In this document: one piece after another, positions 4,014 through 43,374 of the stretch
Numbering within the stretch: the stretch's first letter is position 1
How the letters are laid out: the number at the start of each line of letters is the position of its first letter
NCBI GenBank assembly: GCA_010356995.1
Contig: ML996696.1
Span: 932,364-996,363 of the forward strand
DNA length: 64,000 nt
From: Trichodelitschia bisporula
Taxonomy: Eukaryota
Reading direction: 5' to 3'
Notes under the pieces: model-generated
Database searches by the model: none
What the model saw: only the letters and a program-made list of their open reading frames with translations
Told to the model about the DNA's origin: nothing
Made by a program: the position numbers and the translations under genes

Positions 4014-4740
4014 TTATCCCCCAGCTTCCCCGAGCTCAAGCTACCCCCGCGCCCTCCCCGCCCTGCATACAATCTCCCTGCGCCCATCCCGCCGCCGAAA
4101 GCTACCCTGGGCCCGGCGGCCCATTGGGCGTAGATAACGGCGCCGGCGCGCGCGAGTTCGAACATTCCGCGCAGACGCGCCGTGGATGGCGGGTAGCGAA
4201 ATAGGGAGGCGCAAAGCGTGAGCAACGGCAATGCCGCCTGGCTGTCATTCTTGTGACTGTTATCTGATACCGCGACCGTGGCTGAGTCTCCGGTTACTGA
4301 CAAGGAAATCACATCGGCCCAGCCGCCGCCGGGATTGGCGCGGCGCATTCAGGTGCGGATATCCCGGTCGCACTGGTTGAGCAAACCCCGCGGGGCTAGA
4401 CATCGACCCCGCCGTCGTTTCCTGGGCAGTAGCCGCGATCGTCGCCGCGTAGCGCTGCTTCCATGTCCGCGTTCCTGACCTCCCAACCCCAAACCCACTC
4501 CTACGAGGTACCGGCATGCATCGCCAACCCACCAATCACGCCTCCCCACCGCCCGGCTCATTCCACCCTTCTCACGCCATCCCCGCGGGCGCAGATAAGC
4601 CCCCCGCCCAACCAATAAGCGCCAAGCATCGGTCCAGGGGTGGACAGCGGGGTGCAAAAGCGACCGTGATAGCGCGGGGTGGTTGAGCCGGAGGGACGAG
4701 ATAGGCGTTGCGGCGTTTGAGGTGCGCGGGGGTTTTATCG
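4014..4740. promoter_or_regulatory. Cluster of GATA (HGATAR-type) sites upstream of the ammonium transporter; putative AreA/NIT2 nitrogen-regulation sites
   Basis: AGATAA 4132, TTATCT 4260, AGATAA 4593, TGATAG 4667, AGATAG 4699, TTATCG 4735 and TTATCC 4014, all within about 900 bp of the ATG. GATA-factor control of fungal MEP genes is established. Confidence 0.6.
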
Positions 4741-8586: not shown

Positions 8587-11272
8587 TGTTGGGTTGGACG
8601 GGCATTTGTGGTGGTTTAGGGGGGAAAATTGGTGGTGATGGTGAGGGAGGAGGTGGAGTGGTCGTGATGGCCGAAAAGTTCTGACGGGACACGACGTTTG
8701 GCTTATCGATAAGAGACGCGCTTGGCGCGTTTACGGGTGAGGCTGGCGGGGCGGGCGAATCGTGACTGATCGACTGGGCCAGCCTTGCGGCGTTTGATGC
8801 TGTTGGTTAGAAATGTATGGAGCGTCGGGCGAAATCACACTTAAAAAATGGGTTCGATAGCTGAGAAGGCAGTTTTACTTCGCGGCATGCAGACAAACAG
8901 TTCCTAAAGATCTACGATTGCGGACGATGCGGAATGCTCCTTGTGTACGGATACAGAATGCAACAACGCTTTGAGCCGCAGAATACCATCTCTTGAGGAA
9001 ATGGACTGTGCATTTAGACGTCAGAAGGGTGGCTTGATTGGCAGATGTTTCGGTTCCCCCCTCCTTCTCACAAGACATCGGCCTGTGGCCAATTGGCGAA
9101 ATGGGAGCAGTCCTCCGTTGCCTCTCCGTTGCCAGATTACCCTGACCAGGAAGAGACACCGAGCCTCATCGCGTGGGAGATGGGCAGCCGGATCTACAAG
9201 GTCTTCTTCCTAGGCTTAGCGATCGTTGCTAAAGACTACCCAGTCCCCCTCTTAACCTCGTCTCAGTGATATCAACACAGCTTCATGTGCCTCAAGTTAT
9301 GACAGCTCATCACAACACCTGGCTTTCTCTGGTCGAACATGCTGATGAACAATTAGGTTATGATTAATGGCCTTGCTTCACCGCTTGAGCCCTCGGAGAT
9401 CAAACATCGTGTCTCTCCATCAGACTTACGATCGTCACAAGGAGCATCATCTCGAGGCTGAGTTCCATGTGGGAGTACAAGGGTTAAATGGAAAGGTTCG
9501 GAAAGGCAGGGATGCATCCGAGCATAAAGTGCCTGTCCATGTACCTCCTTCGGTACTCGATATATGGCCCTTGCTGCCACATTTCCGAGAGGTCACCAGT
9601 CCAGCCTGTGCGATCTATTGCCAGGAGTACTCGCTTCTTGGGTAGGACTTGGATGTTTCAAACCGATTATGCTGTCCGACATAGCACATGTCCATGCTCA
9701 GTCATAAGAGGGCGTCTCTTTCTCGCTTCTCTCCATGACCATGACGCTGTCTGCATAGAGTAGGACGAAGTGTAGTCGCTTCCTCTGGTCGGTTCGGAAA
9801 TTTCCAGCTCGAGTGAGAGAGTGTGGTGATGCCAGGAAGCGTTCTGGGAGATCTTGGACAGGGACTGATGCAAACTGGGGACGGGGTGAAGCGAGTATGG
9901 GTCGTTGACACTTCCGTCCGTCAGTCAAGTCGACCAGCGTCACGACTTGACAGACGGGTCACCTGTCCCTCATCATTAGCAGCAACAACCTCACGATCAC
10001 TCACACTTCGAACATCACCACTCCAACTCCCTCCCCATAAACCCTAGAGAGCCTCGGCTAGACCCGAAACACTGGCACATGTCCCGACAACATCAGTAGC
10101 GGCAACCAGGACCGGGCGCGCTGCAGTGTGCAATCTAGACAAAGTGCGCCCGTCCAGGGCCCGGCAGTTCATCCCATCGTCATTCCATCCTTCAATCGAC
10201 TCTGGCCAGCTCCAATCTCTCCATAAACCAGGCACAACACTTACCAGTAGCGAGCCAGCACTCCGTTGACTTGACTTTCCAGTCCCGGCCCTCCCCCTTC
10301 CGTCACCCCCGGTCTCACAACTCTCAACCCTAGTACACCACACTGCCCCTCGTCCCCGCACTCCCGCCTCGCCTGGCAGCGCATCCCGGCGCGGATGGCA
10401 CATGGCATGGCGCGTGCGGACGGGCGGACGGACGGGCTTCGAGAAGAGTGAGAGAAGGTGTGCGCATGGACGGGGTGCGGAGATGCGGGGGATGCGATGA
10501 TGGCCGTTGGGCCAGGGATCGTGGGGATTGGGGGGAGTACAGGACTCGGATGAAGGGGGTGGGTGATCCAGATGCAGGTACGGGCGATAGGAGGAGTGTT
10601 TGGTGTTCGGGGGAGGATGGGGATTGAGGGCGAGATTGCGACGGTTGCTACTTGTTACGCTGGATGGGGCGTGGCGGTGTTTATTAGATGGTGGGTTCTG
10701 CGGTCCAGTCCGTCCTAGTGTCGAGGCTACTTGATCTGCTTCTTTACCTCGTGCCAGCTTTAGTTGTGCTTCTAGAACTACACGTGCGGATATCTCTACT
10801 TTTATCTACACACCTCGCCTCGTTTCTTCTTGAAGTTCTTCTCTTTCATCCCCATCTCCCGATTCTCGCCTCCGCCGCTTACAGACCGCTACTGTCAAGC
10901 AAGCTGATCGCCTTGTCGCGCACAGCCAATCGAATCGCCTCACGGCCTGCTTACTACTGCAGGCCACACAAGCCGGCCGCAGCCCAAAGCCATTCCACCT
11001 CAATCCACCTCATCCCCCCCATCAACTTCGCCCACAAACCCCACCGCTCTCGTTGCATCTCCAACATCACCACCTCCATATCTCCACCTCTCTCTAATCA
11101 CCAACTGGTCTTCCACCTCATCCTCACCGTCACCCACCAACATCCACGCGACGTGAAACCCGCCAAAACACCCTCACTCAAACACACACACCGCTCCTTC
11201 AACCCATCATTCCACCGCCACAATGGCGCCCTGAACAACCCAAAGCAACATACACACACCGAGGCATCCGCC

Positions 11273-12469
11273 ATGGATTTCATAGTACGTCCTCCCCTCC
11301 CCCAATGGCGCCTCTAACTAACACACACCCAGCTCTCCCTCGCCCACTTCTGCGAAGTCCACGGCCCCACCTCCATCCTCTGCACCCAACTCGCCCCCCA
11401 AACCTGCACGTCCTGCCTCCACAGCCATCAATACACCCACTCCCCCTCCCCCACCTCCAGTCCAACCTCCCCCCCGCCCTCACCAGACGAATGGCTCTAC
11501 AACACCCCCCTCTCCTCCCCCAGCAGCCCCGGCGCACACCTCTCCACCTCAAACCCCTACTTCGCCGTCCCCCCGCGAAAAGAGTCCTACCCCCTCCCGG
11601 ACCCCACCTCCTGCGACACCTGCGACGCCTGCGCCTTCCTCGTCCCCTCCACCCTCTCCTCGAACCTCCCCGCCGGAGCCCCGGGCTCCCCAACGCTCGA
11701 CGGCAAAGGCCGACACGGCTCCCCCGTCCTGCGCACCACACAATCCATCCTCGTCCCCACCCTCACCCATAATAACCCTTCCCATCCCTCCTCCGACCCC
11801 CCCTCCCCCACCTCCTCCGCCTCCTCCACCTCCTCAGCCAGCACTACCCCCCCAACACACACCCACCGCCTAACCTACGTCTCAACCCGACACCCGCCTA
11901 ATCCCGGCGCCTACACCCTTTTGCGGCGCGCCTGCATCCGCACCCTGAGCTGCGAGAACCTCCCCCGCGGCTCCCCCTCCGGGCCCCTGTACTTCGGCGA
12001 CCCGATCGCGGGCTACACCGTCGCATACGTCTTCCGCCTCCCCGACCCGCGCGCGCGCGGCAGGCGGCGCACATACGCGCTGCTCGCGTTAGGCGGGCGG
12101 GATGCATGGCGCGTGTCCGCAGCGTACGTGCGCCTGACGCGCAAATTCGAGCAAATCGCCGCTAGGATCGTGGCACTCGCCGAAAAGGCCCTCGAAACCC
12201 AGAACCACGAACGTCGTGACTCAACGGGCATGCCCAACGGCCGGGGCAGCGCTCCGTCGTTGGGGGGAAGCGGAAAGGGGACCCTGAGTGATGTTAGTTC
12301 TTTTCTGGTGGCGAAGACGCGCGATCCGGATGGGTTTTGGGCGAGGGGGGGGAGGGATGTGGGCAGGGCGAAGGGGTTGGCGGAGATTTGTGGGCGGGAG
12401 GATTTTTTTGTGGAACTTCATGCTAGGTTTTGTGTTATTCTTGCGGGGTTGGTGGGGGAGGAGGGGTAN
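11273..12469 (+). CDS. LST7: Folliculin/Lst7-family protein; intron 11285-11332; probable stop codon TAN at 12467-12469 abuts an assembly gap
   Basis: The spliced start MDFI/LSLAHFCEVHGPTSILCTQ and RRACIRTLSCENLP...GPLYFGDPIAGYTVAYVFRLPDPRARGRRRTYAL are folliculin N-terminal signatures. Exon 2 is in frame with ORF 11921. Confidence 0.88.
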
Positions 12470-12518
12470 NNNNNNNNNNNNNNNNNNNNNNNNNNNNNNN
12501 NNNNNNNNNNNNNNNNNN
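12469..12518. other. Assembly gap (50 N)
   Basis: Run of n characters. Confidence 1.
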
Positions 12519-12710
12519 GAGTTCGGGTGCTGCGTTTTAGCGTGTTGATGTTACTGTTGTTGTTGTGAGGTTGTTTTTTGTTCTGGGAATGAGGGGGATA
12601 CCCGGTGTGGGAGAACGGGGTGCGGGTTGATTCATGATGATAGATAATACGTGTGTGAGAGCGAGAGGGTGGTATTACTGAGACGACCATGTACGATATA
12701 CGATGACGGG

Positions 12711-13330
12711 AGGGGGGTTGGACGCGGGCTCTCAGCAAGCATGGGTGGAGTTTCTCTTCGCTTTTCGCTCCTTCGCCATGTCTCGCGACGAAGCGGAGAA
12801 TGAAGAGAAGCTCCACCATGCCTTGCTGAGAGCCTGTGTCTGGACCCCCCTGGGTTCGGGAGGGGGGGTCGGACACGAGTTCTTAATTCATTTGCACATG
12901 GGCTTCTCTCCGTTTTTTTTGCGCCGTACACTTCGCGACGGAGTGGAGGATGGAGAGAAGCGTATTACGCAGATGATCTGCGAGCCCGCGTCCGCCTTCC
13001 CATGGGGGGCGGTAGGGGGCTGGACGCGTGTTCCCTGGAAGTTCGATGGAGGCACTCTTCGTCCTCCGCTTCTTTGCTGTGGCTTGGTGACCGGGGCCGG
13101 TTGCTTATGCTATGACGCGCGACGAAGCGGGGTGTGAGGAGTCCTTCCACCCGAATTTTTCTGGGAGCGTGTGTCTGGCCCACTCCCTGGAGGGGCCGGA
13201 CGCGGGTGCTCAGTTCATCTGGGTGTACGCTTCTCTCCGTTTTTCTGCTTCGGACACTGAGTGAGGGGGTTGGAGGATGGAGAGAGGCGTATACGCAGAT
13301 GATCTGGGAGCTCGCGTCTGTTAGACGCCC
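12711..13330 (+). ncRNA. Tandem array of four paralogous long hairpins (putative milRNA or structured ncRNA precursor cluster)
   Basis: Hairpins at about 12711-12851, 12862-13000, 13017-13181 and 13192-13330. Each opens with GGGG.YGGAC(G/A)CG and closes with GYGTCYG followed by a C-run. Stems are about 40-55 bp and rich in G-U pairs on the + strand. Confidence 0.6.
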
Positions 13331-13348
13331 TCACCCCCTGGAGGAGAG

Positions 13349-13504
13349 GATGAGGTTGACTTCGAGACGGGTGTTGTGTTAATATGCAATTCTATGATGA
13401 GAAGGTCTTCCTTCGGCGCGCAGCGGTGATGTTGATATCCCCGCTTTTACAAGATGAGGGGTTCGCCCTTCAGCACCGAGTTCTAGCGGTGATGTCGATA
13501 TGCA
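13349..13504. repeat. Three degenerate ~50-bp tandem units (GATGAG...CTTC...GGTGATGTYGATAT)
   Basis: agcggtgatgttgatat at 13422-13438 and agcggtgatgtcgatat at 13485-13501, with a more degenerate copy at 13349-13388. Confidence 0.55.
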
Positions 13505-13692
13505 TACTCCTACAGTCCATGTACACATCAAAATACTCAGACATGAATTGATAGAGCGGAGAAACGCCATGCCCATGCCCATGCCCAACCCTTCACACCA
13601 TCATCTACTCGCCCATCCTACACTTTCTTTTGGTTTCGTCATCGGCCGCACAGTAGTCGTTCACATCTCCAGTCCTCGCCGTCCCGCAGAGC

Positions 13693-14109
13693 TCATGACC
13701 CCTTCCTCAACCACGTGTCGTCCGACTCCTTGCTCTCTACGCGTGCCTCTTCGATCAGGACGTCTATTCCGCGGTCTTTGAGGGCTTTCTGTCTCCCGTC
13801 AGCATAATCCTCACCCGCCTCAACCCCTCCACCCCAAAAAAAAAAGGGAGCTAAGCAACGTACATTCAAACAAGCCTTATACTCCACAAACAGCGGCGCA
13901 CACTCATCGCTCCTCGCCGCGCCACGGAGGAACTCTACCATCCGTCAGGATAGATACATGAAAAGTGGAGGGCCGGGAGACGTACTTTCGCTGTACCATT
14001 TTAAGAAGCAGCTATCATACCGCCTCCCCTGCGTTAGCTAGGGAACGGGGGGAAGGGGAGACGCGGACTCTTTAACTTCATTACACTCCGGCGCGAGGGA
14101 GGCGGACAT
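13693..14109 (-). CDS. MDM35: Mdm35/TRIAP1 twin CX9C mitochondrial intermembrane-space protein; introns 14068-14024, 13985-13935, 13863-13789
   Basis: Spliced translation MSASLAPECNEVKERYDSCFLKWYSEKFLRGAARSDECAPLFVEYKACLNKALKDRGID... with twin CX9C. Confidence 0.93.
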
Positions 14110-14862
14110 TTCGTTCTTCTTTGATTTCCTTTTCGGGGGCACTGGAGGCGGGATGGTTGGTAGCTGTGTGTGTTTGAATGTTTAGGTATTTGGGTGACTT
14201 CGTATGTGAAGAATAGGTCGTGAATACAAAATTGGGCGGTTTGTATCGAAGTGAGAATGGTATGCGGTTTGATGCCGACGTCACGCCGCCCGCGCCAAGC
14301 AACCGGCCCGGACCCGCGCTCCAGGAACAAAGCGGCGCGTGGCGTCGGGTGGGATTGGCGAATCAGATGGGCGGTGGGTGGACGACGTGCCCTGGGCTGG
14401 ATGGGGAAGGAGATTTGAGAAGAGGTAGGTATGTTAGCTTGGGCCGTCGTGATTTGGATTTATAGGATTGAGTTGCTAGCCTGTGATAAGCAGCCAGGAG
14501 TCGGTTCCGGGAGACAATGCTACGCGAGGTAATCGATGAGGTCGTAAATGACTAGTCACACACAGCACAATTCACGCGAACAGAGCATTTGAAAGCATGA
14601 TGACGACTACGACTACGGTCGGCCAGGGGGTTCAGTTCTCTACCTCATTCCATCCACAGCAGAACGCAGGGCCTCGTCCCCTGGACAACAGGAATACAGA
14701 CACACACCGCTAGCCGCTTTTCAACAGGTGCCACAAGACCCCTATCAGAAGAACTCAATCCTTCCAGCGCCTAGCCACACCCTACACATAACCGTTACAC
14801 AGAAGAATCGAATCTCAGAGGCTTCGAACCACCCCCCAACCGCACCGTCTCACCAACACCAC

Positions 14863-42932: not shown

Positions 42933-43374
42933 GCAACCCCCCCACCCCCTATAATTGACAACAAACGGTAGGGGGCGAGAGGATACACCGGATGCTGCGG
43001 GCCGATCTGATCGCAACATCGGGTGCCGGCGCGGGCTTCACTGGGACCTCTTCGCCAGCGTCGGTCTCTGGGGACTTTGGACTGTTTTCGCAACAAGACA
43101 TGAAAAAGCCTTCAACAGACTGATTTTTCCTTTTTCTTTTTCTCTTTGATCGCGGCTGACTTGCCCTGCGGCTATTCAACAATGCCGCGGGGTATAGATA
43201 GCAGGTTGGGGGGAAAGGGGGAGGGAAGATGGTGCTGGGGAGGAATGGTTCTGGGAGTTTGTCGTCGACGAGCCGGACGAAGCAATGATACCCCGTTATG
43301 GACCCTGATGCTTTCGTGTGCCAGTGCCTAGCCCTGTTTTTGGACATTACTCTGGATATTGGAAGGTGGAGATT

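Follow-up and report, generated by a model that had tools for sequence, protein, structure and literature searches.

The window, a stretch of 64,000 nucleotides (G000:C10:932364-996363) in the 25.8-Mb, 44-contig assembly of a Dothideomycete fungus, carries a cluster of four hairpins, hp1 to hp4, at 12711-13335. The cluster lies in transcribed non-coding DNA between the convergent stop codons of an LST7/folliculin gene on the plus strand, which belongs to the TORC1 pathway, and an MDM35-family gene on the minus strand. The features are given below with the evidence for each.

11273..12471, plus strand: LST7/folliculin gene with an intron at 11285-11332 (PF11704, E 1.6e-43; splice joint; translation)
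12469..12518, no strand: assembly gap of 50 N that touches the LST7 stop codon (loose ends of RNA contigs on either side reach into a long G tract)
12711..12851, plus strand: hp1 (type A), a near-perfect hairpin of 61 pairs with an 8-nt loop (fold)
12862..13001, plus strand: hp2 (type B), 55 pairs, with a decaying 5' arm in the lower stem and an intact upper stem (fold; arm comparisons)
12944..12965, plus strand: predicted small RNA, a U-starting 22-nt candidate in the upper 3' arm of hp2 (one difference from 13271-13292)
13014..13182, plus strand: hp3 (type A'), 74 pairs, with an apical insertion of about 33 nt that itself lengthens the stem (fold; covariance model)
13192..13321, plus strand: hp4 (type B'), 61 pairs, with an apical sequence of its own and a weak extension to about 13335 (fold)
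13271..13292, plus strand: predicted small RNA, the matching 22-nt candidate in hp4 (sequence comparison with hp2)
13693..14110, minus strand: MDM35-family (UPF0203) gene of four exons and 81 aa, convergent with LST7 (splice joints; reading frame; PF05254, E 1.2e-6)

The LST7 protein has database matches in other Dothideomycetes at about 50%, and its GT-AG intron is visible in RNA contigs from two runs of one sample. The adjoining gap is probably a short homopolymer, because the RNA contigs run into a long G tract from both sides. The convergent gene belongs to UPF0203, which we take to be the MDM35 family; its introns lie at about 13789-13863, 13935-13985 and 14024-14068, and CT-AC joints in the RNA contigs (13788/13864, 13934/13986 and 14022/14068) identify it as a spliced minus-strand gene. 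Between the hairpins and this gene, a 30-nt direct repeat is present twice, 63 nt apart and with 77% identity, at 13422-13514, where the local G+T skew turns. A protein-coding reading of the hairpin DNA found no support in Pfam, where its two overlapping open reading frames (12703-13137 and 13134-13382; 144 and 82 aa) have no match.

Each unit folds strongly on the plus strand, with energies of -107.6, -74.0, -98.9 and -93.4 kcal/mol for hp1 to hp4 and z scores of -12.2, -5.9, -6.7 and -8.7 against 200 dinucleotide shuffles each. The corresponding minus-strand z scores are -11.4, -5.0, -2.3 and -4.1, and a minus-strand RNA fold was rejected because it is the weaker one in all four units. When the window was folded in sliding segments (n=2546), four of the five best scores fell inside the cluster. 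The spacers between the units are 10-30 nt long and contain G/C runs, and the loops and apices vary from unit to unit. The duplex regions have no secondary stems or loops of more than 20 nt and the hairpins have no structural RNA homology, as asked of fungal hairpins in the available part of a compilation (PMC9757828). No known RNA family was matched in Rfam at the gathering score, and a tRNA or ribozyme was likewise rejected (no tRNA found, no such Rfam match); 11 of the 14 sub-threshold Rfam matches are miRNA models, recognized by shape only. If the whole locus is folded without a span limit, hp2 pairs with hp4 around hp3 (-399.3 versus -378.5 kcal/mol for the local hairpins), which counts against a role of the hairpins as Dicer substrates. 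A transcript terminated after hp2 or hp3 retains the local hairpins in silico, suggesting that folding during transcription would favour them.

The four units are homologous. Pairwise identity is 80% for hp2/hp4, 71% for hp1/hp3 and 61-72% for the remaining four pairs, and a covariance model trained on hp1, hp2 and hp4 recovers the unseen hp3 with an E value of 6.9e-7. The motifs and mid-stem arms on which the first-pass annotation had based its view of the family were all found in place: GCTTCTCTCCGTTTTT at 12902 and 13229, TGGAGGATGGAGAGARGCGTAT at 12944 and 13271 and ACGCAGATGATCTG at 12967 and 13293 are shared by hp2 and hp4, and CGCGACGAAGCGG at 12784 and 13118 and TCCACC at 12812 and 13146 by hp1 and hp3. 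The last two are indeed present in both members of the pair, but the CGCGACG part also occurs in hp2 (12934) and so is not specific to hp1 and hp3. A pattern for the shared basal stem matches exactly these four units in the genome (no match for the control). A DNA search of limited sensitivity found no other copy elsewhere in the genome, and the covariance model had no match in 230 kb of other loci. The arm end has two off-locus matches with one mismatch, both without a hairpin match, and in these searches the hairpins do not form the dispersed multi-copy family that would mark a MITE.

It had also been proposed that one hairpin was duplicated to a pair and that the pair was then duplicated, giving the order A-B-A'-B'. 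The gap-free informative columns uphold this history, favouring hp1 with hp3 and hp2 with hp4 over the two alternative groupings by 15:0:1 and 22:0:1 under two MAFFT settings. To our knowledge, interleaved sister pairs among four tandem copies without deletions arise only by duplication of a two-unit block, and the grouping thus points to one duplication of a pair, although conversion between non-neighbouring copies could mimic it. The changes within the two sister pairs (32 of 110 versus 21 of 108 positions, p=0.11) are compatible with one age. A hairpin unit of ~150 nt would thus have been duplicated into a pair whose members diverged into types A and B, and the whole pair would have been duplicated in turn.

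The claim that both arms of each hairpin changed together was examined by a pair-ladder alignment and by an alignment-free arm-swap test, both judged against simulations without indels. In hp1 versus hp3, 10 columns changed on both arms compared with 4.6 expected (P 7e-4), 7 of them still paired, and 73% of the changed columns remain paired versus 43% in simulation, a value that none of the 80 simulations reached. Between hp3 and hp4 there are 9 double changes that keep the pairing (reached in 5/80 simulations), with a kept fraction of 0.72 (1/80); the kept fraction is 0.74 for hp1/hp4 and 0.61 for hp2/hp3 (1/80 each). Kept pairing in the pair-ladder alignment is no different from simulation for hp1/hp2 (14/80) and hp2/hp4 (19/80), and hp2 differs from hp4 by one pair-keeping double change versus 8 single breaks. 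When arms are swapped, own arms beat foreign ones by 24.6-41.7 kcal/mol in five of the six unit pairs (0/200 simulations each); the result is reversed for hp2/hp4 (+8.4; 182/200 simulations), among the 24 possible assignments of arms, the true one comes second after the hp2/hp4 swap. The 3' arm of hp2 finds a better partner in the 5' arm of hp4 (-82.7) than in its own 5' arm (-56.6). Taking hp1 and hp3 as outgroups gives 10 derived changes for the 5' arm of hp2 and 3 for that of hp4. The lower stem of hp2 is decaying in its 5' arm, and arm-swapping was rejected as the cause because this arm is a poor partner in both folds. Both sides have changed in 13 of the 50 consensus pairs (reached in 1/500 shuffles), a weak test in that the structure was derived from the same four related rows. 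Arm co-evolution is therefore real for hp1, hp3 and hp4 and between types A and B, and structure-preserving divergence is supported for these three units but fails for hp2 against hp4.

As causes of such paired change, the first-pass annotation had offered compensatory evolution or arm-to-arm conversion. We find signs of both, which are inseparable here: tolerance of G-U pairs speaks for compensatory selection, and three neighbouring double changes in a row that separate hp1 from hp3, together with a G-U-free tract in hp1, speak for conversion. The mid-stem turns over, but the basal stem and a 22-mer are retained, and what hp2 and hp4 have best preserved in common is the upper 3' arm and not the mid-stem, in which that annotation had placed the variable part. 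Its further idea, that one scaffold could carry different cargo sequences, is speculative here, no target having been found.

The pairing itself is strongly asymmetric. A strand-neutral alignment of arm to arm contains 172 Watson-Crick, 51 G-U, 9 A-C, 15 other and 19 gap columns, and the plus-strand ratio of G-U to A-C (51:9) departs from 50:50 with p 3e-8. From the composition of the flanks, a G-U share of 0.68-0.85 is expected, against which the bias has a p of 0.002-0.59, and the local G+T skew could explain part of the excess. The sense-strand 3' ends are G+T-rich in all four genes examined in the window. Base composition is strongly polar along genes (11200-12600 and others), with a C-rich 5' part and a G+T-rich sense 3' end.

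For comparison, we scanned the window and 20 regions of 10 kb for hairpins of at least 40 unbranched pairs. Nine other long-hairpin loci were found, 4 in the 200 kb sampled and 5 in the window; long hairpins are common in this genome, which counts against reading these four as Dicer substrates. Six of the nine loci were compared and five counted, a low-complexity tract near 43100 being left out. The five control hairpins are strand-symmetric: the ratio of G-U to A-C is 54:9 in the cluster versus 31:22 on the better strands of these five (p 0.0014), and G-U pairs set against all disruptive mismatches also separate the cluster from these controls (p 9e-5). Transversion mismatches number 16 of 79 here versus 30 of 83 in the controls (p 0.036).

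Several hairpins elsewhere deserve separate mention. The tract left out (43088-43265) is a purine/pyrimidine hairpin with a G-U bias of 15:1, which shows that composition alone can give such a bias. Two further long hairpins (390-550 and 1205-1300), unrelated to the four-unit family and nearly strand-symmetric, lie in a non-coding stretch behind a minus-strand gene that ends at 2275 and by eye resembles an ammonium transporter. On another contig, three mutually unrelated, near-perfect long hairpins occur in single copy within 900 nt (G000:C6:305638-306559), with G-U about equal to A-C and no Rfam match. An inverted repeat with perfectly matching arms of about 100 bp each (G000:C13; L054:3904-4174) has a 5S rRNA gene (4256-4374) at a distance of about 80 nt.

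RNA contigs from the two runs span the four hairpins without a break, and one contig (12519 to 14216) covers all four, though such contigs show neither strand nor level nor single molecules. This contig is joined to the minus-strand gene, a point against the Dicer-substrate reading. The cumulative G+T skew, which runs on from LST7, peaks at 13502, and this would place 12519-13500 on the LST7 side and leave the convergent gene with a 3' UTR of about 190 nt; the G-U content of the hairpins themselves contributes to the skew, but it is seen in the two flanks as well. Stretches of 8, 5 and 5 T lie within hp2, hp3 and hp4, respectively. As runs of 5-8 T stop RNA polymerase III, they argue against its use on the plus strand. 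From the strand bias and the T runs, we infer that the hairpins are read on the plus strand by RNA polymerase II; their likely host transcript is the LST7 mRNA, which most probably carries them in a long 3' UTR or a 3' extension.

The genome encodes the machinery expected of fungal microRNAs and microRNA-like RNAs, namely two Dicer-like loci with two RNase III domains each and three Argonaute loci with a Piwi domain. One of the Piwi matches (G000:C18:570652-571683) has three internal stops, reflecting either introns or a broken gene. We put at about an even chance the reading that the four paralogous hairpins form a cluster in the 3' region of LST7 and serve Dicer as substrates (microRNA-like precursors) in the manner of Fgmil-2/bioH1. 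Each unit would fold locally into a rod of 55-74 pairs and be cut by Dicer into duplexes of ~22 nt, probably with one sequence common to hp2 and hp4 and different ones from hp1 and hp3. The cut might also, or instead, sever the host mRNA from its poly(A) tail, as for Fgmil-2/bioH1. In hp2 and hp4, the conserved 22-nt stretch opposite a G-U-accepting 5' arm has the look of a guide and its passenger.

Targets were sought for five candidate 20-22-mers. None exceeded the control in the genome (1, 2, 5, 0 and 0 off-locus matches at 3 mismatches versus 1, 1, 2, 0 and 1), and the single off-locus match of the hp2/hp4 22-mer, antisense in a long open reading frame, is at chance level. Feedback on RNAi genes was rejected, since the best complementarity to the three Argonaute and two partial Dicer loci equals that of reversed controls, and so was a viral origin or target (no exact 22-mer match in viral contigs). 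The absence of targets above control fits an effect in cis or loose pairing and, equally, no function.

The most serious alternative, which we regard as rather improbable, is a functionless inverted repeat: a DNA quasi-palindrome that was tandemly duplicated and whose arms were recopied by template switching during replication, with a G-U excess due to the G+T bias of 3' ends and with incidental transcription. Template switching is described as yielding multi-base compensatory changes (Monttinen and Loytynoja 2022, PMC8794818, in the part available), and the three adjacent double changes and the Watson-Crick-only tract of hp1 are of this kind. The other long single-copy inverted repeats in this genome, the likewise G-U-biased tract near 43100, the decay of hp2 and the failure to find a target are also in its favour, as is the failure to find an orthologue: no comparable hairpin stands behind LST7 in either of two distant metagenome loci (55-58% protein identity), one of which has only ~600 nt of flank. 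The decay of hp2 and the missing target and orthologue also tell against the Dicer-substrate reading. Conversion, however, removes G-U as readily as A-C, and yet G-U columns far outnumber A-C and other mismatches here; strand skew is no explanation for the shortage of transversion mismatches relative to the five control hairpins, and the basal stem and the 22-mer have been kept despite turnover of the mid-stem. These observations give moderate support to selection on the plus-strand RNA, helped by occasional arm-to-arm copying.

We consider it unlikely that the hairpins are a structured 3' UTR element that yields no small RNAs, with rods that bind a dsRNA-binding or transport protein, govern how stable the LST7 mRNA is or where its 3' end forms, or shield it from the convergent transcript of the MDM35-family gene. 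Such an element shares all the structural and strand evidence with the Dicer-substrate reading, and it accords with RNA contigs that pass intact through the hairpins and with the lack of a trans target in the genome or among RNAi genes; but loops and apices that differ among units are unfavourable to a protein that reads loops, and a cell with two Dicer-like genes would be expected to cut a long continuous dsRNA. A little less probable still is a more elaborate form of the Dicer-substrate reading, a polycistronic paralogous microRNA cluster in which Dicer trims the LST7 mRNA and releases three guides from one duplicated scaffold; the weak hp2 could swap arms with hp4, and the choice between local and long-range folding would decide which guides are made. 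It is very improbable that the units are head-to-tail remnants of a MITE or another fold-back transposon, for although the arms mirror each other inward from their ends, the DNA search, the basal-stem pattern, the bare arm-end matches and the covariance model all fail to reveal a copy elsewhere, and a G-U bias on one strand ill suits a DNA element.

Judged on fold and sequence, the hairpins may be a cluster of small-RNA genes. If they are diced, the locus is a natural experiment in the birth, diversification and decay of a fungal microRNA family, in which four copies in one transcript serve as internal controls; if not, the locus is an unremarkable though clean example of hairpins kept by template switching.

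The closest known system is Fgmil-2 of Fusarium graminearum, a U-starting RNA of 22 nt that, according to the available part of the report (Guo et al. 2019, PMC6804420), Dicer2 excises from a hairpin lying 103 nt past the stop codon of bioH1. That hairpin measures 105 nt and -62.2 kcal/mol, its cutting by Dicer2 lowers bioH1 mRNA, and the authors found no outside target in crops; fungi, the same text notes, lack Drosha. In both cases a strong hairpin follows closely on the stop codon of a gene in an ascomycete. Compared at the level of description, the two loci differ in that Fgmil-2 comes from one hairpin whereas four paralogous ones of 130-170 nt stand here, and dicing, proven for Fgmil-2, is a prediction for the present cluster. 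In the available part of the compilation of fungal microRNAs and microRNA-like RNAs (Johnson et al. 2022, PMC9757828), less than half of the loci reported satisfied basic standards; the criteria include small-RNA reads of at least 0.5 per million with more than 80% from the hairpin strand. The compiled loci resemble ours in being unbranched hairpins that are often linked to protein-coding genes and UTRs, but the well-supported ones are mostly short, in contrast to the long stems here. Six words of 12-14 nt from the hairpins do not occur in nine supplementary files of that paper, nor do 'cluster', 'polycistronic' and 'tandem' in its main text.

Multi-member families of fungal microRNA-like RNAs are described at dispersed loci in the accessible literature (including PMC4515635 and PMC4139310, each in part). 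Our literature search, whose scope left out most subscription journals and bioRxiv supplements, returned no tandem cluster of paralogous hairpins in a fungus, and no work linking MDM35 with microRNA in fungi. With the RNA hairpins attributed to template switching (PMC8794818, in the part available), the present units share multi-base compensatory changes and perfect Watson-Crick tracts; that process, however, is a mutational mechanism and implies no function, and it tends to remove the G-U pairs that are abundant here. The polycistronic clusters of paralogous miRNAs in animals and plants belong to other kingdoms, and the fungal units differ from them in the absence of Drosha and in abutting one another with spacers of only 10-30 nt of G/C runs. 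As far as the portions available describe them (PMC4860694, PMC2812943 and PMC3763532), these clusters nevertheless share with the hairpins of this fungus their basic arrangement, in which related hairpins lie within 1 kb through local duplication.
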